This document shows positions 5,630 to 49,795 of a stretch of DNA of 50,300 nucleotides, one piece after another. The notes under the pieces are model-generated. The model worked only from the letters and a program-made list of their open reading frames with translations, did not search any database and was not told the DNA's origin. Source of the DNA: Chthoniobacterales bacterium (lineage in GTDB: Bacteria > Verrucomicrobiota > Verrucomicrobiia > Chthoniobacterales > UBA6821); the NCBI GenBank assembly GCA_035287205.1, contig DATEBV010000358.1, forward strand, positions 1-50,300, given 5' to 3'. The stretch's first letter is position 1. Every line of letters starts with the position of its first letter. A program made the translations under genes and the position numbers.

Positions 5630-6070
5630 GAGCTCAAACTGAACTGAAGTAATAGGAAGAAGAAAGAAAATAGCCACAAAAGAACACAAAAAAACACAAA
5701 AAAAAGAAGATTAGCAGTGAACTTGATTGCTTAGTTCGGTTAAGCCGTTTTGCAGTTATTGGTGCTCTATGTTTCTCCAGGATCTCAATTCACTACTTTC
5801 TTATTTTTCACGATAGAGAACATTCTTTATCTTGAGTTCTTAAACCTAAAAACGTGAATAGAGAATGGCAAACTGATATAATCTCTTGGTTTCAAAATGC
5901 TTTTTCAAATGTCTTACGTACCTAAAGGTATGCCGCGACCTTTAAAAAAACATTTTTAAATCCAATATCTTACGCCATTTTATCCATTTCTATTCACGTT
6001 TTTAGGTTAAATTCTTTTTTGTGTTCTGATTTTTTGTGTTTTTTTGTGTTCTTTTGTGGCTATTTCTTTT
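5630..6070. mobile_element. Family B inverted-repeat element (B1, about 440 bp) with a nested family F copy
   Basis: Left arm 5630-5710: gagctcaaactgaactgaagtaataggaagaagaaagaaaatagccacaaaagaacacaaaaaaacacaaaaaaaa. Right arm 6013-6070: ttttttgtgttctgattttttgtgtttttttgtgttcttttgtggctatttctttt. The right arm overlaps the stop of the giant ORF. Confidence 0.8.
5843..6008. mobile_element. Family F element (F1, about 166 bp) nested inside B1
   Basis: About 25-bp terminal inverted repeat: aacctaaaaacgtgaatagagaatgg / ccatttctattcacgtttttaggtt. The interior is colinear with F2. Confidence 0.82.
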
Positions 6071-9000: not shown

Positions 9001-10031
9001 TTTTCCTCTGAATCGATGATTGCTTCTTCAAATGTAGTCGTCGTTGTAGGATCAGAGATTGTTGAGTTAACTATTGTTGCATCAGAAATAATAGTTTCTC
9101 CATTACTTCGGTTCTCTTGAGACCTCTGAGTTCTTGCGGTTTCTAGTGCTTCATAAGCAATCTCTTCTTCTTCTCTTGCCTTTGCAAGATCGGCTTCGGC
9201 TGTAGCGCTCTGCGCAGTATCTCTTACTTCAATGGCCATTAATGTAGCCTTAGCTGTTGTTACTTTTGCTTTCGCAAGTTTTTCAACAAGCACTTTGATC
9301 TGATAATTTTCATACGCTTTATCAGCATATTTTTTCCCATGCAGGATGGCTGAAGTAGAGTTGGATCTTTTTTCAGCCAATTCTTTCTCTTTTTGAGCCG
9401 TCTCTAATATTTGTTGGCTCTTTTCTACATCTCTAATGGCTTGTTTCTCTACAGCGGCCCATTCTTTAGCCTCTTGTAGTGCCTCTTCAGAATTGCCACT
9501 AGCGGTTATCTTTCTATTTCGTGACATTTCTGCGACTCTGGCAAGACAGCTTGTATAGATATTATTGTAAATTTCATTTTTAAGAAATTGGGAGGTATTA
9601 TTTTCTTCAAAGAATTCGTCTTCGTCATTTGTTTCCCATGTGATGACGCTTGATGAACTGTTTCTCACAGGAAGAAGTGTTTCGGTGATAGTGCTGACTG
9701 CTGCGCTATCAAGAGAAGTGATTCTTTTTCCAAAAACTCCTAAGGATTCTTCCAATGCTTTTGCCTCTTCGAGTATTGAGGGATTCATCATTAGGTGGCA
9801 CCTCAAGTTTTGACTTGAGTTGTCACAGTTCGCAATTTGCAGTTCGTAGTTCGTAGTAATATTGCCAAGGAGGTTTTGCCTATGGTTTTCAGTCTGTGAA
9901 AAAAGACTGTCGGGAAAAAATATGAAAAGAGAGAGAATTAAAAATATTTGTAAGCGTTCACATCCCCTCCTTCGGAGGACGGATCTGAACCAAATGAATC
10001 GATTGCGAAGTTGTCGTGTGATGTAATGCAT
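6060..10031 (-). CDS. giant Ala/Glu/Lys/Gln-rich coiled-coil protein (function unknown)
   Basis: 1323-aa ORF in its longest form. From ATG 10031 (inside repeat A5) the N-terminus reads like a Sec signal: RRRGCER, then LQIFLILSLFIFF, then PDSLFSQ. Alternative start is ATG 9791, preceded by GAGGTG. Three in-frame tandem duplications are present. Confidence 0.7.
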   Translation of the reverse strand: MHYITRQLRNRFIWFRSVLRRRGCERLQIFLILSLFIFFPDSLFSQTENHRQNLLGNITTNYELQIANCDNSSQNLRCHLMMNPSILEEAKALEESLGVFGKRITSLDSAAVSTITETLLPVRNSSSSVITWETNDEDEFFEENNTSQFLKNEIYNNIYTSCLARVAEMSRNRKITASGNSEEALQEAKEWAAVEKQAIRDVEKSQQILETAQKEKELAEKRSNSTSAILHGKKYADKAYENYQIKVLVEKLAKAKVTTAKATLMAIEVRDTAQSATAEADLAKAREEEEIAYEALETARTQRSQENRSNGETIISDATIVNSTISDPTTTTTFEEAIIDSEENAKVQREALFAPVKNELKTITNMRGRAGRVVKATDSVDQERQGKDHRVTQDTKIFNKSDWAKASTLRDEVEARAARTAPLIKAAIQEVMNPGRAERVNSMVKMLEEVRTVKTAFALLRTEFQKIKEISDKTKTQSEDALTVANNAQKSTQQTTDITAKVQAKMLKLQGECTETTQTAKNTKAFVQQALATAQEELQKTSATAEEAKTHAKRAETVASKATFTATTAEDHSEEAKAQAEKATTIAEKAQEKAEQAAKDAQEATIYAAKALQTVGITQKAPQTVGITQSPVAMKISVAMKIIQQVKSVANTLLQALEHAKTEKFESMVQSLQSAQNSQTSLDNEINHEINHEIKEKINEEINYKMKATQAEAEENHEIAHIWNFAAQAPHNKKSTEAAVKCVEHLLKAQEAQSENKTLAQQERELAGQFWILAQQPAQKATEEIFNALLKSQEARAKGDQNLATCWRETAKQYQNYQEYTQMGYSNPSMDLSEKCAVALKKCALYETQASEARVAGNPELVSSWATTAKQFQTIAQLYDQWIKASEACKPSEEIQRLNAKIYAEAATAETLIKSAEYFTKAHETHIANNQELAACYKEVAESLKKEPSQGNRPPIIEALVKQAEYSEKAQKAQAAGRQELANLFKGLAANHHTLSLDSPQIHQQLEEARRNEQNARSSYDSQCNRSTNDQYAYQQRDEAYKRLQKEQQKVNELSQLPNLINTARQYIQSAPPQIERLEKEAGYLEKAQQAQVRGDSEQATAWKKLLEQFQHAQRIIQQAPQQINSYQQQMNQSGQDRSRAQQYITGLNCKLASANRMNNQTLPMLVTWLERTQEAQSVENKNSCKTVVQQLQKALDEDQKVLQSAENTLMDNCPVTQAASVANQLAHNLAQRTEQLWKTYKHQETLQSNWDLAEQSLTHWSEAVQLIKTVLENKSQTTQALKAGKQEEARSSAQKAKEAAKAALVEIEKVQEEMIKSLCEKK
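7951..7986 (-). repeat. 12-bp in-frame tandem repeat (about 3 units) inside the giant ORF
   Basis: atttcatggttt atttcatggttt atttcattgtct; encodes NHEI-NHEI. Confidence 0.85.
8106..8141 (-). repeat. 18-bp in-frame tandem duplication inside the giant ORF
   Basis: aattttcatagcaactga / aattttcatagcaactgg; encodes VAMKIS-VAMKII. Confidence 0.9.
8147..8206 (-). repeat. 30-bp in-frame tandem duplication inside the giant ORF
   Basis: gggtgatgccgacagtttggggcgcttttt / gggtgatgccgacagtttggagcgcttttg; encodes the peptide QTVGITQ twice, one copy per unit. Confidence 0.9.
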
Positions 10032-10051
10032 AGTTTGTTGAGGAGCTACTT
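9950..10051 (-). repeat. Family A element (A5), sense and upstream of / fused to the giant coiled-coil ORF
   Basis: The reverse complement reads agtagctcctcaacaaactatgcattacatcacacgacaacttcgcaatcgattcatttggttcagatccgtcctccgaaggaggggatgtgaacgcttac. Its ATG is the first codon of ORF 6060-10031. Confidence 0.88.
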
Positions 10052-10147: not shown

Positions 10148-10359
10148 ATTAATACGCTGATTAAGATTTGATAGATCACTCTGATGATTAATTGATTCTC
10201 TGCCACATTTTACCGATGGGTTAACCGAATATTTACTATTTTTGTATGGTTGTTTTTAAGCCGCCGAAAAAACTTGCGGTTAATTAAGTGATAGTGTAAG
10301 AGTAACAACTTGCCTTTCCTTATGTCAAATCAAGATTGGCTTTTTGATTCCTTTAATTT

Positions 10360-10443
10360 ATGCATTACATCACATTACGACTTCGCAGTCGATTCATTTG
10401 GTTCAGATCCTGCCTCCAAAGGAGGGGGATCTGAACGCTTACC
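10360..10443 (+). repeat. Family A element (A6) ending exactly at the infA start codon
   Basis: atgcattacatcacattacgacttcgcagtcgattcatttggttcagatcctgcctccaaaggagggggatctgaacgcttacc followed directly by ATG 10444; hairpin 10400-10436. Confidence 0.92.
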
Positions 10444-10662
10444 ATGGCAAAAGAACAAGCAATTACTACTGATGGGGTCGTCTTGGAGGTTCTCCCTGGT
10501 ACGATGTTTCGTGTCAGATTATCCAATGGGCATCCTGTTTTAGGGCATATCTCAGGGAAAATGCGAAAGCATTTTATCCGTATTGTTCCTGGAGATAAAG
10601 TTACTGTAGAGATGTCTCCATACGATTTAACTAAGGCGCGTATTGTTTTCCGTACTGCGTAG
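10444..10662 (+). CDS. infA: translation initiation factor IF-1
   Basis: 72-aa ORF; near-canonical IF-1 S1-fold sequence ([20 protein letters not shown]...[16 protein letters not shown]). Confidence 0.95.
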
Positions 10663-18487: not shown

Positions 18488-18582
18488 CTATTCGGCCTGT
18501 TGGCCGAATAGTTAGTTTAAGTTAAGAGTTTAAGTTTAAGTTAATTTTTGGTCACTTCGTGACAAGTTGAAAAATAAAGCGG
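18486..18582 (+). repeat. Family C modular element (C1) directly after the hemA stop
   Basis: Modules: hairpin ctATTCGGCCtgttGGCCGAATag; (A)AGTTTAAG-type short tandem units; TTTTTGGTCACTTCGTGACAAG; gaaaaataaagcgg. Confidence 0.88.
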
Positions 18583-18670
18583 TAACTACCGACATCTATG
18601 GTAACTTTTCAGTCCCCTTTTCTCCGGAGATGAGCTCTGAACTATAGGCTACAGGAGCAGATAGCTGTTT

Positions 18671-18774
18671 AGTAGCTTCTCAAAAAACTATGCAATCCAT
18701 TCATATTACTACTTCGCAGTCCAATCATTTAATTCAGATACCTCCTCCTTTGGAGGAAGTATCTGAACCCCTAA
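18671..18774 (+). repeat. Family A element (A8) forming the 5' end of hemC
   Basis: agtagcttctcaaaaaactATGcaatccattcatattactacttcgcagtccaatcatttaattcagatacctcctcctttggaggaagtatctgaacccctaa; translated in frame as MQSIHITTSQSNHLIQIPPPLEEVSEPL. Confidence 0.92.
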
Positions 18775-19808
18775 TTATTTTAGGAACTAGAGGAAGTGCG
18801 CTGGCGCGTGCGCAGACAACGCTTGTTAGCAAGTTGCTGAGAGCAGCCCACCCCGATCTTAGCATTGAAGAAAAGATTATTACTACAATAGGAGATATTA
18901 CTAGCGAACGGTCAAATTGTTTTATTCAGAGGCCGCCTCCGCAGGAGGTGGGCTCTGAACGCTTAACAGGAGATGCACGTCCTATGATGCCCCTCCATGA
19001 ACCAACTGCAGAAGGATCTGGTCTTTTTACACAACAACTAGAAGAGGCACTGTTCTCGCACGAAATCGATGCTGCGGTTCATAGTCTGAAAGATCTTCCG
19101 GTTAGGACTCCTATGCGGTTGATTTTAGCTGCTATTTTACCACGTGCGGCAACAAATGATCTGTTAATAACTCTTGATCAAGGGGGGCTTGAAGGATTGG
19201 CGTCTGGAGCTACCATAGGAAGTAGTAGTCCACGACGAGTAGAATTGCTCAGACATCGTCGTTGTGATCTTCGCTTTACAACACTTCGAGGTAATGTTCC
19301 GACAAGGTTGCGGAAATTAGCGATGAATCAACGAGATCACCCGCTAGATGCAATTGTTTTAGCACAGGCAGGACTCGAACGACTTGGATATGATTTGAAT
19401 ATCATCAAAGGAGAAGGTTGTTTCATGTTCGATGGTACAATGCTGCATGTGACAGAGTTGACTTGGATGCTTCCAGCACCAGGTCAAGGAGCCATTGCTA
19501 TTGAGACCCGTGATGTAAGTGATGAGAAATCTTCTCATGACGTTTCTGCCTATTTTTCAGCGCTACACGATGAAAAGACGGCAAAGTGTGTTCAAGCTGA
19601 ACGACTGCTCTTACAGTATCTCGGTGGAGGTTGTCATATGGCCCTAGGAGCCTTAGCGACTCTTGATGAGAGTTCACAGCAGATTGCGCTGAAGGGTGTC
19701 TATGTTCCTTATGCTGGGGCTACTCCTCGCGAGGGAGAAGCGAGAGGGGCTACTCCAGAAGAGGTAGCGTTGCTCGTGATGACACAGTTGACGGATAAAT
19801 TGGCGTGA
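18690..19808 (+). CDS. hemC: hydroxymethylbilane synthase (porphobilinogen deaminase) with repeat-derived N-terminus and an internal repeat insertion
   Basis: LGTRGSALA N-terminal motif, HSLKDLP, cofactor region GGGCHMALGA. The only in-frame ATG/TTG codons upstream of GTRGS (18690, 18750) lie inside repeat A8. Confidence 0.88.
   Translation: MQSIHITTSQSNHLIQIPPPLEEVSEPLIILGTRGSALARAQTTLVSKLLRAAHPDLSIEEKIITTIGDITSERSNCFIQRPPPQEVGSERLTGDARPMMPLHEPTAEGSGLFTQQLEEALFSHEIDAAVHSLKDLPVRTPMRLILAAILPRAATNDLLITLDQGGLEGLASGATIGSSSPRRVELLRHRRCDLRFTTLRGNVPTRLRKLAMNQRDHPLDAIVLAQAGLERLGYDLNIIKGEGCFMFDGTMLHVTELTWMLPAPGQGAIAIETRDVSDEKSSHDVSAYFSALHDEKTAKCVQAERLLLQYLGGGCHMALGALATLDESSQQIALKGVYVPYAGATPREGEARGATPEEVALLVMTQLTDKLA
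18897..18967 (+). mobile_element. Family A 3'-module (A9) inserted in frame inside hemC, flanked by a 7-bp direct repeat
   Basis: attactagcgaacggtcaaattgttttattcagaggccgcctccgcaggaggtgggctctgaacgcttaac, bracketed by AGGAGAT at 18890-18896 and 18968-18974. The repeat-to-repeat distance is 78 bp (26 codons). Confidence 0.88.
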
Positions 19809-19987: not shown

Positions 19988-21652
19988 TTGATGTTAGCCT
20001 CTAAAACTATGCATTGCATTCACACTACGACTTCGCAGTCCGATCATTTATTTCAGATCTTTCCTCCGAAGGAGGAAAGATCTGAACGCCTACCTATTAC
20101 TCAACAACGTCAACCTGCAGGTATCTGTTTCTTAGTTGGAGCAGGACCTGGTGATCCTGGTCTTCTTACGGTGCGTGGTCAGGAGTTACTGCAGCAGGCA
20201 GAGGTTGTTCTCTATGATTATCTCTGCAATCGAGAACTACTGAGACAGGTGCCGTCGATAGCTGAAAAAATCTATGTTGGGAAAAGTGCTGGCAAACATG
20301 CATTGACTCAAGAGGAGATCAATGCCTTGCTTGTCAAATTCACGAAAGAAGGAAAACGTGTGGTGCGTTTAAAAGGAGGCGATCCTTTTCTTTTTGGGCG
20401 AGGAGGAGAAGAGGCCGAAGCGTTAGTCGATGCAGGGTTGCGGTTTGAAATTGTTCCCGGAGTAACTTCTGCTATTGCAGGATTAGCTTATGCAGGAATT
20501 CCTGTAACGCATCGTAAGAGTAATTCGCAGCTCACGATTTTTACCGGACATGAAGATCCTTCTAAGGATGGGTCATCACTCAATTATCCGTTACTAGCCT
20601 CAACTCCTGGGACGAAAGTTATGCTTATGGGGGTGGAGCAATTAGCTTCAATAACAACAGCGTTAGCAGTAGGAGGAATGGCATCGACAACACCAGTAGC
20701 CCTTGTTCGTTGGGCAACCACAGGACGCCATCAGACGATTGTTGGGACATTGGGGACCATTGCTGCTCTTGCTCAAGAAAACGATTTTAAAGCGCCTGCT
20801 ATTGCTGTTTTTGGAGAGGTTGTAACGCTTCGTGAGAAGCTCAATTGGTTTGAAACGCGACCTCTTTTTGGACGTCGTATTGTCGTCACTCGCACTCGCA
20901 AACAGGCAAGCGGTCTTGTAACAGCATTACGTGAGCTAGGAGCTGATGCTTATGAGTTGCCAACGATTCGTATCGAGCCTTTGAAAGAGAAAAAAGAAAT
21001 CGCTGTTTTTGAACAAGCCATAATGGAAGCTCACCATTATGATTGGATCATCTTTACAAGCCCCAATGGAGTAGTTGCTTTTTTTGACGCTTTTTATAAG
21101 TTGCGCCATGATGCTCGTGAATTAGGCAATGTTCGTCTCGCTGCTATTGGTACTGGAACTGCTCGTAAAATTGAAGAGTATCGCTTTGCCGTTGACTTAA
21201 TACCTCCTGAGTTTGTCGCTGAATCACTTCTTAAAGAGTTCCAGAAGATGAGTGTAGAAAATCTTCGTATTCTTTTACCGCGTGCTGCAGGAGCACGTGA
21301 ATTTTTAGCGACGGAACTCGAAGATCGTGGGGCTATTGTCGATGATATTTCTGCTTATTACACAGTAGCTGAAACAGAGGATGTTGCTGGAGGAATTCAA
21401 CGTTTCTGCGAAGAGGGGGCTGATATGATTACTTTTACCAGTGGTTCTACGGTGCAGCATTTTCAGGAATTGGCAAAACAACGAGCTCTTACGTTGCCTA
21501 AAGAGTTGGTTTTGGCTAGTATTGGTCCTGTGACTTCTTTTATGATGAAGGAATTAGGAATGACCGTAGGATTAGAAGCAGAACAACACGATATTCCAGG
21601 ACTTGTTGAGGCAATTTTAGGTTATTATACCCAACGCCCCTTTATTTCGTAG
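19988..21652 (+). CDS. cobA: fused uroporphyrinogen-III C-methyltransferase / uroporphyrinogen-III synthase
   Basis: 554-aa ORF. N-terminal half has VGAGPGDPGLLTVRG and LKGGDPFLFGRGGEE; C-terminal half is HemD-like. All in-frame start codons (19988, 19991, 20009) are at or inside repeat A10. Stop TAG lies in the loop of palindrome G2. Confidence 0.88.
   Translation: MMLASKTMHCIHTTTSQSDHLFQIFPPKEERSERLPITQQRQPAGICFLVGAGPGDPGLLTVRGQELLQQAEVVLYDYLCNRELLRQVPSIAEKIYVGKSAGKHALTQEEINALLVKFTKEGKRVVRLKGGDPFLFGRGGEEAEALVDAGLRFEIVPGVTSAIAGLAYAGIPVTHRKSNSQLTIFTGHEDPSKDGSSLNYPLLASTPGTKVMLMGVEQLASITTALAVGGMASTTPVALVRWATTGRHQTIVGTLGTIAALAQENDFKAPAIAVFGEVVTLREKLNWFETRPLFGRRIVVTRTRKQASGLVTALRELGADAYELPTIRIEPLKEKKEIAVFEQAIMEAHHYDWIIFTSPNGVVAFFDAFYKLRHDARELGNVRLAAIGTGTARKIEEYRFAVDLIPPEFVAESLLKEFQKMSVENLRILLPRAAGAREFLATELEDRGAIVDDISAYYTVAETEDVAGGIQRFCEEGADMITFTSGSTVQHFQELAKQRALTLPKELVLASIGPVTSFMMKELGMTVGLEAEQHDIPGLVEAILGYYTQRPFIS
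19993..20094 (+). repeat. Family A element (A10) forming the 5' end of cobA/hemD
   Basis: gttagcctctaaaactATGcattgcattcacactacgacttcgcagtccgatcatttatttcagatctttcctccgaaggaggaaagatctgaacgcctacc; translated as MHCIHTTTSQSDHLFQIFPPKEERSERLP. Confidence 0.92.
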
Positions 21653-21760: not shown

Positions 21761-21867
21761 TTCAGTAGCTTCTCAAACAAACTATACAATGTATTTACAC
21801 TGCATCTTCGCAGCTCAATCATTTGGTTCAAGTCCGTCCTCCGAAGGAGGGGAGCTGAACGCTTACC
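21761..21867 (+). repeat. Family A element (A11), followed by a variant hairpin at 21881-21917
   Basis: ttcagtagcttctcaaacaaactatacaatgtatttacactgcatcttcgcagctcaatcatttggttcaagtccgtcctccgaaggaggggagctgaacgcttacc; then ttcagagctcacccttcgaagaaaggtgaggttgaac. Confidence 0.88.
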
Positions 21868-23449: not shown

Positions 23450-23453
23450 TAAT

Positions 23454-23542
23454 ATGCAATGCATTCCTCTACTACTTCGCAGTACGATCATTTGATTCAG
23501 ATTCCTCCTCCTCCTTCGGCGGAGGAGAGGTCTGAACTAAGC
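23454..23542 (+). repeat. Family A element (A12) at the 5' end of scpA
   Basis: atgcaATGcattcctctactacttcgcagtacgatcatttgattcagattcctcctcctccttcggcggaggagaggtctgaactaagc; translated as MHSSTTSQYDHLIQIPPPPSAEERSEL. Confidence 0.88.
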
Positions 23543-25369: not shown

Positions 25370-25641
25370 TCAAAACGGTTCGTTTTGGAAGTGATAACAC
25401 ACCAGTAATTTTTCTTAAAAACTAAAAGGATTAAAAAAAAGTAATTCTTAGGCTTGTCGTGACGATCTATTTTCTATTAAATAGAAGACATCGAAGGCAG
25501 TCCTTGTATTTCATTATTATCGCTGTCAGATGCAGCTATCATCAGCTTCTTGCAATTTGTACTTGATTGATGATAATATATTCTGGCTAGTGGGATCGTC
25601 TTTTGCAGCAGTTTTTATTTTAAAAAAAATAAAAATTTCTG

Positions 25642-25671
25642 TTGACTTCAATCTCTTTAATGCATTATGCA
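25642..25671 (+). promoter_or_regulatory. Candidate sigma-70-type promoter for OMP paralog 1
   Basis: TTGACT (25642-25647), 18-nt spacer, TATGCA (25666-25671), preceded by an A/T-rich tract; about 48 nt upstream of ATG 25719. Confidence 0.3.
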
Positions 25672-25718
25672 AGGGGGTCTCAGATACATTCTCAAATCAT
25701 CTCAAACCAATTAAATCT

Positions 25719-26270
25719 ATGAATAAAACATTATCACTACTTGCTATTGTTCTTGCAACGGCAGCTACGTCGTTCGCAGGCCAAACCTGTTCCAAAAAAG
25801 TTGTCTGTGCTCCTGAAGATTGCCGCTTTCGTGCTAACGAGTGGCAAGTTGACACCGCTGTTGTTGGTGGTGTAGGAAAGTATGGCAACAATTCCTTCGG
25901 CGCTCTTGGCGGCGGACTTGGAGTCAATTACTTCTGGTCAAAATACTTTGGTGTCGGCGTTGACGATTCTATTGGTGGTTTGAGACAATCAGGTAGCTCT
26001 TCGACTCAGTTCGTTAACAGTCTCCAGGCTGATCTCATCGCTCGTTATCCTATCTGCTCTTGGAATCTTGCTCCTTACGCCATGGTTGGTGGTGGTGGCA
26101 ACTGGACTAAGAGTGTTAGCCAAGGTAATGGTAACGTTGGTGGTGGTCTTGAGTACCGCCTCACTCGTAACGTTGGTCTCTTTGCTGATTGCCGTTGGCT
26201 CTACGGAAGCAATTCTGCTTCACGCCTCAGCGCAGCTCTCCCACGTGCAGGTGTTCGTTTAGCTTTCTAA
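25719..26270 (+). CDS. small beta-barrel outer-membrane protein, paralog 1
   Basis: Signal peptide MNKTLSLLAIVLATAATSFA/GQ, Gly/aromatic-rich strands, C-terminal ...VRLAF; ORF-track N-terminal extension rejected; own terminator. Confidence 0.75.
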   Translation: MNKTLSLLAIVLATAATSFAGQTCSKKVVCAPEDCRFRANEWQVDTAVVGGVGKYGNNSFGALGGGLGVNYFWSKYFGVGVDDSIGGLRQSGSSSTQFVNSLQADLIARYPICSWNLAPYAMVGGGGNWTKSVSQGNGNVGGGLEYRLTRNVGLFADCRWLYGSNSASRLSAALPRAGVRLAF

Positions 26271-26299
26271 GGTTTTTTAAGAAAGTTAATTTTAGTTTT

Positions 26300-26333
26300 A
26301 AACGGCGCTGGATTTATCCAGCGCCGTTTTTTT
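26300..26333 (+). terminator. Rho-independent terminator after OMP paralog 1
   Basis: aaacggcgctgg-attta-tccagcgccgttt followed by a T-run. Confidence 0.85.
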
Positions 26334-26494
26334 GCATCATACTTTTATTCTAATTGCTACAAACTGAAAATTATGCTTGCCATCTCCTTTTTGAAATTAG
26401 TACGATCACTAAGTTAAATTAACTAAATCTTTAGATAGCTAGATAGCTGTGCAGTTTTTTACAAGTTCTCTACATTTCTAAAACCCTAAAATCT

Positions 26495-27049
26495 ATGAAT
26501 AAAACATTATCACTACTTGCTATTGTTCTTGCAACGGCAGCTACGTCGTTCGCAGGTCAAACCTGTTCCAAAAAAGTTGTCTGTGCTCCTGAAGATTGCC
26601 GTTTCCGTGCTAACGAGTGGCAAGTTGACACCGCAGTTGTTGGTGGTGCTGGAACGTATGGTGATCATTCGTTCGGCGCCATTGGCGGTGGAATTGGGGT
26701 TAATTACTTCTGGTCAAAATATTTTGGTGTCGGTATTGACGATTCTCTTGGTGGCTTGAAAGAAACTTGTCATTCTAGTTCAACTGAGTTTGTTAATAGT
26801 TTTCAAGCGGATCTCATCGCTCGTTATCCTATCTGTTCTTGGAATCTTGCTCCTTACGCCATGGTTGGTGGTGGTGGCAACTGGACTCAGAATGTTAGCC
26901 AAGGTAATGGTAACGTTGGTGGTGGTCTTGAGTACCGCCTCACTCGTAACGTTGGTCTCTTTGCTGATTGCCGTTGGCTCTATGGAAGTAATGCTGCTTC
27001 ACGCCTCAGCGCAGCTCTTCCACGTGCAGGTGTTCGTTTAGCTTTCTAA
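26495..27049 (+). CDS. small beta-barrel outer-membrane protein, paralog 2
   Basis: 184 aa. Nearly identical to paralog 1 at the 5' and 3' ends and divergent in three internal patches; C-terminal F. Confidence 0.8.
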   Translation: MNKTLSLLAIVLATAATSFAGQTCSKKVVCAPEDCRFRANEWQVDTAVVGGAGTYGDHSFGAIGGGIGVNYFWSKYFGVGIDDSLGGLKETCHSSSTEFVNSFQADLIARYPICSWNLAPYAMVGGGGNWTQNVSQGNGNVGGGLEYRLTRNVGLFADCRWLYGSNAASRLSAALPRAGVRLAF

Positions 27050-27078
27050 GGTTTTTTAAGAAAGTTAATTTTAGTTGT

Positions 27079-27112
27079 AAACGGCGCTGGATTTATCCAG
27101 CGCCTTTTTTTT
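27079..27112 (+). terminator. Rho-independent terminator after OMP paralog 2
   Basis: aaacggcgctgg-attta-tccagcgcc followed by tttttttt. Confidence 0.85.
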
Positions 27113-27175
27113 GTAACTATTTAGATTGCATAGAATATTATTTTTGTTACTGTTTCGGTTCTTAAAAAATATATT

Positions 27176-27733
27176 ATGAATAAAACACTATCACTCCTTG
27201 CTATAGTCCTTATGGCAACAACGTCATTTGCAGGTCAAGCAGTTTCTTCGAAGAAGGTTGTTTGCACATCTGATGATTGCCGCTTCCATGCTAATGAATG
27301 GCAAGTTGATGTATCTACTGTAGGCGCTGTAGGTGTTTATGGTGGTCAAAACAAACAGGCGCTAGGAGCTAATCTAGGAGTGAATTACTTCTGGTCAAAA
27401 TACTTTGGTGTTGGTATTGATAACTCAGTTGGTAGTGAAAGAAATGCTGGGATGACAGGGTTTAATGGATTGCAGGCTTACGACAGTCTTCAAGCGGATC
27501 TGATCGCTCGTTATCCTATCTGTTCTTGGAATCTTGCTCCTTACGCCATGGTAGGTGGTGGTGCAAGTTGGGGTCCTGCTAGCCAAGGCAATGGTAATGT
27601 TGGTGGGGGTTTGGAATATCGTTTAATGAAGAATGTCGGTTTCTTTACTGATTGTCGTTGGCTTTATGGTAATAATGGGACTATGTCACTGAGCATGGCG
27701 ATGCCACGTATAGGTATGCGTTTGGGTTTCTAA
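27176..27733 (+). CDS. small beta-barrel outer-membrane protein, paralog 3 (more divergent)
   Basis: 185 aa; same architecture (signal peptide, CRFxANEWQVD, LQADLIARYPICSWNLAPYAMVGGG, C-terminal ...RLGF). Confidence 0.8.
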   Translation: MNKTLSLLAIVLMATTSFAGQAVSSKKVVCTSDDCRFHANEWQVDVSTVGAVGVYGGQNKQALGANLGVNYFWSKYFGVGIDNSVGSERNAGMTGFNGLQAYDSLQADLIARYPICSWNLAPYAMVGGGASWGPASQGNGNVGGGLEYRLMKNVGFFTDCRWLYGNNGTMSLSMAMPRIGMRLGF

Positions 27734-27751
27734 GGCAAAAAATAATTGTAA

Positions 27752-28213
<462 letters not shown>

Positions 28214-35541: not shown

Positions 35542-35596
35542 ATTAGGGAAGTAGTAACCACCAATGTTGGTAGTTGAGAGATAGAAGATAGAAGAT

Positions 35597-35674
35597 TGCA
35601 TTTTAAATGATTACTTTGCAGTCCGATTATTTAATTCAGATCCGTCCTCCGAAGGAGGGGATCTGAATGCCTAC
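35597..35674 (+). repeat. Family A element (A13), antisense at the 3' end of the hydrolase gene
   Basis: tgcattttaaatgattactttgcagtccgattatttaattcagatccgtcctccgaaggaggggatctgaatgcctac; encodes the hydrolase C-terminus and stop on the minus strand. Confidence 0.88.
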
Positions 35675-36670
35675 TTCACGTTCAATAGCCGTAATGAGTG
35701 AGGAGGGATTGGCTAAAGGGGCAAGGAAACCAGGTGATTCTACTTCTGTAATAGAAAAACGATGAGCCAAGGGGCGCAGGCTCGTGATAGTTTCTGTTGT
35801 TTGACGGTTTGATTCTTGCGCTACAAGTAGTGCTATGGGAGCCGTGATCGTTGTTAGCCTTGCTGGAAGACTACGCCAGAATTTACGGGAGCTTTGAGCT
35901 AAAAAAGCATGCTCAGTTCCATATTGTTGTGCTGTGGATGTTAGGACAGTGAGGATTTCTTCAAAAGAGGGATCTTCGGAAGGAAAATGAGAGCGGATAA
36001 GCCAGTTTCTAATAGAAGCCTCTGTGCTTAACTGACGATGATAGACTAAGCGTGCAAGAGGGGGAAACCAAGAAAGAGAATAGGTGCCTGCTAAAGGGAA
36101 AGGACTTTTAGTTCCTTTTATGGCCAATAAAGGCATCCAGAGAAGAAGACGCACCACTTTATTGGGATAGGAGGCGCTTAAAAGAAGAGCAAGGTTAGCA
36201 CTCAGTCCCGAAGCAATAATAGTAACTGGCTTACCCTTGGTTGTGGCTTCTAGAAACTCTGCAAGAGAACGTGTTTGGGCATGAGCAGAGATGGCAGGAC
36301 GAGGGCGCTGAGACTCTCCGAAACCAATCAAATCAGGAACTAAGACCTGATAATTAGGTGCAAAGTGAGGATACACTTTAGACCATTCGAAAGAGGACGC
36401 CCCTGGGAAAACACCATGGAGAAAGAGGAGAGGCTCTCCTTCTCCTGAAGTATGATAAACGATTTCACCCGAAGAGGTATTTAGAACACGGGTGGCAAAG
36501 ACGGCGGGTGAAATAGCTTCTGAAAGAGGACTACGCAATGGATTTTTCCAACCTGATCGAAGTGCTAAAAGAAGAGCTCCTAGAAGTCCCACACCAAGAC
36601 CCGCCCCAACACTCATACCGATGGGGGAGAGCTTGTCCGGAGAATGATTTTTTTTAAAAGACTTGCTCAT
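35636..36670 (-). CDS. alpha/beta-fold hydrolase with N-terminal membrane anchor
   Basis: 344 aa; LLFLHGVFPG oxyanion-type HG motif, nucleophile-elbow-like IIASGLSAN. C-terminal GIQIPSFGGRI is encoded by repeat A13. Confidence 0.65.
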   Translation of the reverse strand: MSKSFKKNHSPDKLSPIGMSVGAGLGVGLLGALLLALRSGWKNPLRSPLSEAISPAVFATRVLNTSSGEIVYHTSGEGEPLLFLHGVFPGASSFEWSKVYPHFAPNYQVLVPDLIGFGESQRPRPAISAHAQTRSLAEFLEATTKGKPVTIIASGLSANLALLLSASYPNKVVRLLLWMPLLAIKGTKSPFPLAGTYSLSWFPPLARLVYHRQLSTEASIRNWLIRSHFPSEDPSFEEILTVLTSTAQQYGTEHAFLAQSSRKFWRSLPARLTTITAPIALLVAQESNRQTTETITSLRPLAHRFSITEVESPGFLAPLANPSSLITAIEREVGIQIPSFGGRI

Positions 36671-39525: not shown

Positions 39526-40319
39526 CTGAAGTAATAGGAAGAAGGAAAAAAGAGGAAAAAACAGCCACAAAAGAACGACCAGAAAAGTGCAGGGTAAAGA
39601 GTAAAGGGTTAAGAGTTCTGAGGCGGAATTTGCTAAGTCAACACTATATGACCAACAGATGGGATCTAGCCAGCGAGAAGAGCAGAAATTAACCGCAAAA
39701 GAACACACAGGAACAACAAAAATTCTGTAATCAAGATAAGAACCTTAGTAGTGTAAAAGTTGATACGGTATAAGATATCATACGATACGATTGCTGTCGA
39801 GTAACCGTATAGGTCCTTCCAAAGAAGAGTAGGTCTTAATACCTATGGTTAAGGTAGTAGTAATTTTTAATAGCTTTTTTAATCAATGGCCTAAATTTTA
39901 TGTTTAATGACAATTCTTTAAAAGCCTTTTCTAATTTTTCAGGATGCTCTATGAGGTCCTTGCAGATAACTGCCGAATTTTTTGGCAATACGAGTTACAA
40001 ATTCTTTCTCATGAGGAGGCATTGTGTTGCGATTCACAAAAGCCCAGTTGGTTTCATACAGGCGCAGAGCTGTCTCCTCCGTCATTTGTGGAGTATGACG
40101 ATTCCAACATAACGCTGCCAATTCTGGAAAGTCATTCCAAAAAATGAGCTGATCTTTATGATGCTCGAGAATTGCATTTTGCATGAGAAAAGTATAGGCG
40201 TTGGCGTTACGGCTGTCGACAGGAAGAAGGAGCAAATTAACGACAATAATTACTCTGTTAATTACTTCTACGTTCTTTGTGTTCTTTTGTGGCTATTTTC
40301 TTCCTTCTGCTTATTTCAG
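39526..40319. mobile_element. Family B-bounded 794-bp segment (B3) enclosing ORF 39939-40235
   Basis: Left arm: ctgaagtaataggaagaaggaaaaaagaggaaaaaacagccacaaaagaac, plus a second arm-like block at 39684-39725. The right arm reverse complement reads ctgaaataagcagaaggaagaaaatagccacaaaagaacacaaagaacg. The right arm contains the protease stop codon. Confidence 0.6.
39939..40235 (-). CDS. hypothetical small helical protein (possible cargo of a family-B-bounded segment)
   Basis: 98-aa ORF (81 aa from ATG 40184); no family recognised; the only ORF between inverted family-B arms 39526-39587 and 40271-40319. Confidence 0.35.
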   Translation of the reverse strand: MLLLPVDSRNANAYTFLMQNAILEHHKDQLIFWNDFPELAALCWNRHTPQMTEETALRLYETNWAFVNRNTMPPHEKEFVTRIAKKFGSYLQGPHRAS

Positions 40320-43528: not shown

Positions 43529-43560
43529 CGTGCCAACGTCAAATAAAACTATTAAGAGAA

Positions 43561-43622
43561 GAAAAGAAGGAATAGCCACAAAAGAACACAAAGAAACACA
43601 AAAAAGAAAACCGGATCGTAAC
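43561..43622 (+). repeat. Family B solo arm (B4)
   Basis: attaagagaagaaaagaaggaatagccacaaaagaacacaaagaaacacaaaaaagaaaacc, about 30 nt after the 5'-3' exonuclease stop. Confidence 0.8.
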
Positions 43623-44522: not shown

Positions 44523-44547
44523 GTGCTGCTTTGCAGTTTGTTTAAGT

Positions 44548-44860
44548 GGGAAGAAGGAATAGCCACAAAAGAACACAAAAAAGCACAAAAAAAGAACCTG
44601 GGTGGTGGAATTAATTAATTAGAGTCTCTAAGTTGAATAGATAGGTCATTAGTACCTCAATTCCATTTTGTAAAAAGATTATCGATGATATAGGAAATTT
44701 TTGTATTTCTTTGTGTTATTTTGACTCGCTCGCTCCCGTTCAGCAGCCCTATAGGGCTATTCGAGCAAGGCTCTTCATAGTCCATCTCACGGCCGCTCGA
44801 TTACTGGTATTGTGGCTATTTTCTTCCTTCTTTCTATTACTTTAGCTTAGTTTGAGCTCT
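44548..44860. mobile_element. Family B inverted-repeat element (B5); right arm split by an 84-bp GC-rich insert
   Basis: Left arm: gggaagaaggaatagccacaaaagaacacaaaaaagcacaaaaaaagaacc. Right arm is in two pieces, 44697-44722 and 44808-44860 (tattgtggctattttcttccttctttctattactttagcttagtttgagctc). The insert 44723-44806 contains the palindrome agccctatagggct. Confidence 0.75.
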
Positions 44861-46520: not shown

Positions 46521-46653
46521 CCTGAAGGGCGGAGAAGAAGAAATTAACCACAAAAGGACACAAAAGAAGAAGTAAAGAGTGAAGGATAAAGAGATGGAAG
46601 AAATAGCCACAAAAGAACACAAAGAACGCAAAGAAGAAGGGCACAAAAAAAGA
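46521..46653 (+). repeat. Two tandem family B arms (B7)
   Basis: cctgaagggcggagaagaagaaattaaccacaaaaggacacaaaagaagaag...gaagaaatagccacaaaagaacacaaagaacgcaaagaagaagggcacaaaaaaaga, then ATG 46654. Confidence 0.75.
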
Positions 46654-49057: not shown

Positions 49058-49795
49058 TTACAGGATATGGGTGAGAGCTTTAAGTTTGGATAGGATTTTT
49101 TCAGTGACTTCGTCAGCTGATCCTGAGGCATCGATAACAATAATACGGTCAGGTTCTTGCTCTGCCAGGGTGAGATAACCATGGCGAATAGCTTCAAAAA
49201 AAACTTCTGATTCTTGTTCGATACGATCAGGCATTGTTGATGAATTGGCATTACGTGATACCATTCGTTTACGCCCTATAGCAACTTCAAGATCAAGTAA
49301 GATCGTAATATTAGGAAGTGTTCCTCCTGTGGCAAATTGGTTCATCCAGGTTACTTCTTCTTGATTTAATGCACGTGCTACCCCTTGATAAACGGTGGTA
49401 GAATCAAGAAAACGATCGCAGAGCACAATAGCTCCACGAGAGAGAGCGGGACGAATGATTTCACGTACGAGTTGAGCCCGACTTGCTGCGAAGAGAAGTA
49501 ACTCTGTTTCAGGAGCCATAGCCGCGGATTCTGGAGCATATTGTAAAATAGAACGAATCTGTTCACCTACACCTGTTCCTCCCGGTTCTCGCAAGAGCAG
49601 AACCTCACGGGAGGGGGATGTGACATTGCCCTTTTGAAAAAACTCTGCCAGGCGAGCAATCTGCGTTGATTTGCCACACCCCTCCGAACCCTCAAAAGTA
49701 ATAAAAAATCCACCATTATTCAAATTTTCCTCGTGGGGAAGAGAACTCTGAATGAAATGATTCGACTGTTCATTAATGGTACGATTTAATTGCAT
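49058..49795 (-). CDS. tmk: thymidylate kinase
   Basis: P-loop FEGSEGCGKSTQ, LCDRF, LLDL motifs. The first 24 codons are a decayed family-A copy; alternative TTG 49723 is preceded by GAGGAA. Confidence 0.9.
   Translation of the reverse strand: MQLNRTINEQSNHFIQSSLPHEENLNNGGFFITFEGSEGCGKSTQIARLAEFFQKGNVTSPSREVLLLREPGGTGVGEQIRSILQYAPESAAMAPETELLLFAASRAQLVREIIRPALSRGAIVLCDRFLDSTTVYQGVARALNQEEVTWMNQFATGGTLPNITILLDLEVAIGRKRMVSRNANSSTMPDRIEQESEVFFEAIRHGYLTLAEQEPDRIIVIDASGSADEVTEKILSKLKALTHIL

Follow-up and report, generated by a model that had tools for sequence, protein, structure and literature searches.

The hemC gene (hydroxymethylbilane synthase) encoded in a 50,300-nucleotide stretch of DNA from a Chthoniobacterales bacterium, the whole of which is referred to here as the window, contains an insertion that is real and lineage-specific and is no artefact, as indicated by comparison of its sequence with that of orthologues and of other assemblies. 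To judge from its sequence, the insert is an A2-subfamily copy of a dispersed repeat, family A, and family A is a genuine, conventional MITE. Taken as a whole, we consider it likely (probability around 0.8) that an A2 element was inserted into hemC with an 8-bp duplication of its target and was later shortened by an in-frame deletion. Coordinates of the features concerned are collected in Table 1.

Table 1. Positions of hemC, of the family-A sequences in and beside it, and of the elements flanked by perfect 8-bp duplications (positions without a locus name are those of the window)
Feature	Position	Strand	Details and basis
hemC (hydroxymethylbilane synthase) ORF	18690..19808	+	372 aa; ORF list, Pfam, homologue alignment
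Long-form (174-bp) family-A MITE at hemC 5' end	18601..18774	+	ends GTAACTTTTCAG...CTGAACCCCTAA; replaces native start region
Left target-site duplication copy, TAGGAGAT	18889..18896	+	8 bp; family-wide duplication length; relatives' sequence
Truncated MITE	18897..18966	+	70 nt; A2 positions ~46-115; nhmmer E=1.2e-8, alignment
Subterminal palindrome, TTCAGAGGCCGCCTCC-GCA-GGAGGTGGGCTCTGAA	18925..18959	+	RNA fold
Right terminal inverted repeat, CTGAACGCTTAA	18955..18966	+	family consensus CTGAACGGTTAC
Right duplication copy, CAGGAGAT	18967..18974	+	native hemC codons for (T)GD; alignment, relatives' DNA
Element with perfect 8-bp duplication	L089 2813-2927		115 bp
Element with perfect 8-bp duplication	L089 4928-5037		110 bp
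Element with perfect 8-bp duplication	L093 5855-6038		184 bp
Element with perfect 8-bp duplication	L098 4860-5038		179 bp
Element with perfect 8-bp duplication	L110 4508-4622		115 bp
Element with perfect 8-bp duplication	L117 3045-3159		115 bp

The insert in hemC

The hemC ORF (18690-19808) carried no stop codon across the inserted segment and had, besides the internal insert, an N-terminal extension derived from an element; in its product, Pfam recognised Porphobil_deam in two separate stretches, plus Porphobil_deamC. The HemC homologues collected were 304-362 amino acids long, and the 17 closest ones (identity up to 81%; annotated as Chthoniobacterales/Verrucomicrobia) were aligned with the protein of the window. 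Extra residues, placed between "KIITT" and "TGDA", were present in the window HemC alone and corresponded to a gap in 17 out of 17 homologues. These 26 residues can be written as ITSERSNCFIQRPPPQEVGSERLTGD, or as any rotation of it, and the extra sequence amounts to 78 bases, which are exactly 26 codons. In DNA from the three nearest relatives (L084, L085, and L087), hemC was also devoid of the insert, the site reading, for example, ...ATC ACA ACA ACA GGC GAC GCA..., with ACA/ACT/ACG GGx GAY at the position of the duplication; no further empty site was found at the DNA level in 1.28 Mb from 80 genomes plus the contigs of the closest relatives. The alignment with orthologues suggested in the initial annotation thus bore out its claim that removal of the insert restores the usual HemC spacing.

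An identical insert-bearing sequence was present in three independent assemblies (NCBI GCA_001830205.1, ENA ERZ4903070, and Logan SRR2090157), indicating that the insert is not an assembly artefact. Other lineage-specific inserts do occur in HemC homologues (28 residues in P0030, for instance), and the segment might accordingly be regarded as an ancestral or lineage-specific loop of the enzyme, or else as a chimera of assembly. We find this barely credible, given the agreement among the three assemblies; it was refuted by the gap in all the nearest homologues, by the DNA of the relatives and by the match of the insert to a repeat with dozens of intergenic copies on both strands. The NCBI contig MIDR01000041.1, which carries the same hemC, stops at the equivalent of window position 26860; the window must accordingly stem from another and longer assembly of this organism.

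Two size classes were distinguished in family A: A2, of 110-115 bp and with one subterminal palindrome, and A1, a composite of 174-201 bp with a palindrome at each end. With a profile made from seven full family-A copies, the hemC segment was recovered in the window by nhmmer at E=1.2e-8 (model positions 34-89 of 90), which, together with the open ORF and the length of 26 codons, upheld the earlier recognition of an in-frame family-A copy within hemC. Of the 115-bp A2 element, the copy retained 70 nt on the 3' side and lacked the left 45 nt; these include the left terminal inverted repeat (TIR), so that the hemC copy can no longer be mobilised. Identity to A2 copies was 79% over element positions 43/48-115 (about 46-115), A2 copies being 70-88% identical among themselves, vs. 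69% to the A1 copy located at the hemC 5' end. The TTAA ending of its right TIR was shared with two other A2 copies that have perfect duplications. RNA folding of 18897-18966 gave -30.4 kcal/mol (z=-4.36), and none out of 200 shuffled sequences folded as well.

At the borders of the insert, AGGAGAT was found at 18890-18896 and 18968-18974, with a start-to-start spacing of 78 bp. This heptamer occurs 11 times on the plus strand of the window, and the chance of an exact 7-mer at two positions set by the ortholog alignment is about 6e-5. The initial annotation had taken it for an intact 7-bp target-site duplication; a duplication is indeed present, but its length is 8 bp rather than 7, AGGAGAT being the part of TAGGAGAT/CAGGAGAT left intact. 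Both flanks agree at 7 out of 8 positions. The left copy shows a single C>T with respect to the right one, which replaced Thr by Ile, so that the ancestral form T-T-T-G-D, seen in P0002-P0004, became T-T-I-G-D; this one-base difference counts against our account.

An origin other than transposition, such as gene conversion or template switching from the hemC 5' copy, with the flanking repeat arising by coincidence or microhomology, would have a donor close at hand, as a family-A copy (18601-18774) lies just 120 bp upstream of the insert, and ATTACTA is found in native hemC (18878-18884) and again at the insert start. Such an origin seems quite improbable to us: the insert resembles A2 copies more than the upstream A1 copy, and gene conversion from the latter was rejected on this subfamily identity; moreover, a 7/8 repeat of the family-typical 8-bp length is placed exactly at both junctions, and the right end of the insert is the TIR terminus of the family.

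Termini, duplications and mobility of family A

The window contained 11 full-length family-A copies and several partial ones, on both strands. When JGI metagenomes were scanned for the hairpin pattern of the family, 29 contigs matched, all of them from one data set only (Ga0155638), whose loci had the same G+C content (41.5%) and did not overlap with the window. In the 305 kb formed by the window and these 29 loci there were 91 non-overlapping copies or fragments, around one per 3.3 kb. When 1.28 Mb of hemC surroundings in 80 other genomes, along with the contigs of the closest relatives, were searched with a family-A profile, nothing was found outside the organism of the window. No match to family A or to anything else was obtained by Rfam scan of the window, and a tRNA scan of the window found nothing.

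Family-A elements bounded by TIRs of 12 bp (GTAACCGTTCAG...CTGAACGGTTAC, with variants GTAAGCG and GTAGGCG) measured 110-201 bp and had no transposase gene inside. Termini of the GTANNCGTTCA form numbered 40 in 305 kb as compared to 0.6 expected (13 GTAAGCG, 16 GTAGGCG, and 7 GTAACCG). Perfect 8/8 flanking direct repeats were present in six elements with TIR pairs 110-184 bp apart (Table 1), and a seventh TIR-bounded element, of 195 bp, displayed a 7/8 repeat; the perfect 8-bp matches expected by chance over the 41 candidate TIR pairs were about 6e-4. A scan anchored on right ends gave 6 exact 8-mers, which came from 5 distinct elements and without exception lay at left ends resembling a TIR, vs. 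0-2 at control offsets. The unanchored longest-common-substring test for duplications hardly differed from the null, and a one-mismatch duplication scan at any distance gave 27 matches vs. 14-29 in controls; the decisive test was the TIR-anchored one restricted to exact 8-bp duplications. The clear 12-bp TIRs along with the 8-bp duplications indicated that family A is a conventional MITE, and the earlier proposal that it is, or was, mobile held good through the perfect duplications at six other elements. The flanking duplications that the initial annotation had proposed to seek at other copies were encountered, with 8 bp and around TIR-bounded elements. In long-form MITEs at L098 2750-2944, L107 3725-3918, and L093 5855-6038, tandem heptamers (CTGTAGC/T) were located between the palindromes, in numbers that varied by copy.

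These data also bear on the unit of movement, which the initial annotation had identified with the 3' module. That this module of some 70 nt is itself mobile, with a 7-bp duplication, would agree with the exact part of the hemC repeat (7 bp) and with about a dozen other short copies that begin at a similar internal point (model positions 14-28). Nevertheless, every copy with a perfect flanking repeat was TIR-bounded, 110-184 bp long and accompanied by an 8-bp repeat, and ATTACTAGCGAA, with which the hemC copy begins, fits the TIR at 4 out of 12 positions only. In addition, the short forms other than hemC in the 305 kb showed no flanking repeat above background in the one-mismatch scan and their 5' boundaries were scattered, not fixed, which argues that the short module is no independent mobile unit. 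We therefore hold this possibility to be unlikely and treat the hemC copy as a remnant of a longer element. Many family-A copies lie in sense orientation just upstream of genes, and a conserved 5'-UTR or regulatory motif was also considered; it was rejected as the primary explanation in view of antisense copies and copies at gene 3' ends (1019, 2920, 10659, and 35593), along with the TIRs and duplications.

With regard to the mobilising enzyme, inverted repeats of the IS66 family begin with GTAAGCG and its insertions are flanked by 8-bp direct repeats (PMC11946415; see also PMC12888890). Family A resembles IS66 in its termini, either GTAAGCG (13) or the close variants GTAGGCG and GTAACCG, and in its 8-bp direct repeats, whereas it differs in having no tnpA/B/C and no full-length IS in the 305 kb sampled; past the first 7 bases its inverted repeat (GTTCAG...) is also unlike that of the Pseudomonas IS66 (PMC12888890). 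The 305 kb, whose loci were inspected by eye, yielded neither an autonomous IS nor an IS66-type transposase with matching ends, and no TIR pair 0.3-5 kb apart in these approximately 305 kb enclosed a transposase, the sole candidate (L098 2475-5761) containing ordinary genes. From two short signatures only, the GTAAGCG ends and the 8-bp duplications, an IS66-type transposase is most likely the best candidate for the mobiliser.

Reading frame, location in the enzyme and proposed history

A 115-bp element plus the 8-bp duplication adds 123 nt, equal to 41 codons. Four 115-bp copies were checked, and in each of them only one out of the six frames was free of stops, encoding V-T-V-Q-x-x-S-Q-Q-T-...-H-F-I-Q-S-A-P-P-Q-E-V-G-S-E-R-L. 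Three of these four copies were located inside ORFs in this open frame; the ORF products are an FGE-sulfatase-domain protein, an SH3-domain protein, and a 1037-aa protein. In-frame insertion into ORFs is therefore recurrent, in hemC and three more, and always in the same frame; the hemC peptide also shares its element frame with the N-terminal fusions, as the initial annotation had stated. In the FGE-sulfatase-domain ORF, the perfect duplication CAAATGGA resulted in a duplicated "TNG", parallel to "(T/I)GD...TGD" in HemC. A profile of the MITE peptide gave no match at E<=1 in a database of 5.8 billion proteins, a size for which a 40-residue profile is too weak.

Residues 29-71 of the window HemC aligned to E. 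coli HemC 6-48, ending in ...TRGD46-VI, and residue 108 onward aligned to E. coli 57 onward. The alignment to solved structures broke at the insert, after the residue equivalent to E. coli D46, which places the insert at the start of the lid loop 45-57. This loop, a mobile one beside the active site, is as a rule disordered in crystal structures (PMC8561815). An AlphaFold2 model of the protein (mean pLDDT 79) presented a confident three-domain core, with target-normalised TM of 0.83-0.86 against PBGD structures, whereas pLDDT was below 50 for residues 67-96 and residues 65 to 114 lacked secondary structure. A surface loop had been anticipated at this point; what was found is more precisely the mobile lid loop of the active site, modelled with low pLDDT, and the 26-residue peptide is expected to form a disordered extension of this already mobile loop. 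The catalytic and cofactor residues R34, K134, D135, R182, R183, R200, R206, and C315, which we take to be E. coli R11, K83, D84, R131, R132, R149, R155, and C242, fell in invariant columns of the alignment. The intact ORF, these residues and the location of the insert, which extends a loop that was mobile beforehand, suggest that the enzyme probably still works, where the initial annotation had taken tolerance of the insert as shown. A further hemC gene might exist in another part of the genome, which counts against the account given below.

We propose that a lineage-specific family-A MITE was moved in trans by a DDE transposase, most probably an IS66-family enzyme, that cuts with an 8-bp stagger. 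An A2 copy of 115 bp would have entered hemC at the target CAGGAGAT, formed by the codons of the conserved T-G-D at the start of the active-site lid loop, and would have fallen in the only stop-free frame of the element, so that hemC would have stayed open with 123 nt (41 codons) added. A later in-frame deletion of 45 bp (15 codons) would have taken the left inverted repeat and the adjoining part of the element; since 123 minus 45 equals 78 nt, such a deletion from the full insertion accounts for the insert in hemC. The outcome would be a 70-nt remnant plus the duplication, 26 extra residues and an element unable to move.

We infer that insertion preceded deletion. The truncation point abuts the left duplication exactly, which a random secondary deletion would rarely give, and among same-species alleles neither the full 115-bp insert nor an empty site was seen; both facts count against the account. 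One possible cause of the exact truncation is transposase cleavage at the TIR followed by imprecise repair. Alternatively, an already truncated copy may have been inserted aberrantly.

Comparison with known systems, gene starts and other repeats

In-frame fusions of MITEs with ORFs are not unusual, the RPEs of Rickettsia being the extreme case (PMC10969869). According to the account given there of Ogata et al. (2000, 2002), RPEs are short palindrome-containing repeats inserted in frame in unrelated housekeeping genes (PMC10969869). Family A and RPEs are alike in their size of about 100-150 bp, their palindromes, a single usable frame, in-frame insertion in unrelated housekeeping genes and an added peptide thought to be at the protein surface, so the analogy with RPEs drawn in the initial annotation is apt in view of the single open frame and the recurrent insertions. 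The likeness is functional and does not imply membership: family A occurs in another phylum (Verrucomicrobiota, Chthoniobacterales), has no Rfam match, displays clear 12-bp TIRs and 8-bp duplications, and has most of its copies in intergenic positions or at gene 5' ends. RPEs are not known to show TIR and duplication hallmarks as clear as these.

Other multicopy, non-autonomous, TIR-bearing and hairpin-forming elements, namely Coxiella QMITE, Neisseria Correia/NEMIS, ERIC, BOX, and Anabaena MITEs (PMC5896051, PMC10969869, PMC3184786), share these features with family A, as well as occasional in-frame fusions or the supply of protein termini. QMITEs mostly change gene 3' ends (PMC5896051), and their fusions to functional genes are found at those ends, in contrast with a family-A insertion internal to a core enzyme and beside its active site; many family-A copies, unlike QMITE, also provide genes with their 5' ends and start codons. 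The REP/BIME elements, which RAYT mobilises, are likewise abundant, short, palindromic and mostly intergenic; however, REPs measure 20-40 bp, with GTAG/CGTC heads and no target duplication, as compared with the 110-201 bp, TIRs and 8-bp duplications of family A (PMC3733652). The size and the duplications ruled out that family A belongs to the REP/RAYT group.

The hemC locus offers a clean and datable case of a transposable element that became part of a core enzyme, and its value lies in a target site that can be reconstructed from orthologues, a family defined by TIRs and an 8-bp duplication, and a location in the lid loop of the active site. "Selfish DNA inside protein-coding genes", best known in Rickettsia, is hereby extended to uncultured Chthoniobacterales and tied to an ordinary, apparently IS66-like, cut-and-paste mechanism. 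More tentatively, and with considerable doubt, family A could be viewed as a further RPE-like system, independent of the first and either built or filtered for coding compatibility (115+8=123, single open frame). It would supply internal loops and also provide numerous housekeeping genes (hemC, cobA/hemD, scpA, tmk, and the NAGPA-family gene) with start codons and N-terminal peptides, and its CCUCC...GGAGG hairpin could in turn influence translation of these genes. If this were true, peptides encoded by MITEs would be widespread in the proteome of the organism.

The only in-frame start codons of hemC, ATG at 18690 and TTG at 18750, are both inside the 174-bp MITE. In the nearest relatives (L084, L085, and L087), hemA directly adjoins or overlaps hemC and no repeats intervene, whereas here the two genes are separated by 202 bp of stacked repeats (window 18488-18774). 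Family-A copies at 20005-20093, 21780-21866, 23453-23537, 49719-49795 (minus), and 9950-10035 (minus) overlap the 5' ends of genes (cobA/hemD, the NAGPA-family gene, scpA, tmk, and a 1323-aa ORF), in which MITE-derived N-terminal extensions, e.g., MHCIHTTTSQSDHLFQIFPPKEERSERL, were observed. Because of such overlaps the annotated starts in this genome are doubtful and, with many gene starts lying inside MITE copies, predicted N-termini are unreliable. Between another copy (10356-10446) and the ATG of an IF-1-like gene there is just one nucleotide, a C; the sole Shine-Dalgarno-like motif of this gene (GGAGG) falls within the 3' arm of the MITE hairpin, around 18 nt upstream of the ATG. The plus-strand copy 35593-35674 reaches into the 3' end of gene 35636-36670 on the minus strand, and consequently the C-terminal residues of its product would come from the antisense strand of the MITE.

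The window harboured further repeats. A 22-nt palindrome, TATTCGGCCnnnnGGCCGAATA, constitutes a second family (2110, 10091, 14826, 18489, 37870, 46327, 46849, and 48880); it is mostly placed just past gene 3' ends, often followed by short repeats of the GTTTAAGTT type, and possibly represents an element similar to REPs or to terminators. Seven copies were noted of a third repeat, which contains the A-rich core AGCCACAAAAGAACACAAA, at 5654-5717, 39545-39721, 43556-43619, 44543-44606, and 46536-46650. Finally, the region 25530-27789 consists of three tandem units of approximately 680-780 bp, each one followed by the same terminator-like hairpin; units 2 and 3 encode paralogous secreted proteins of around 185 aa (MNKTLSLLAIVL...).
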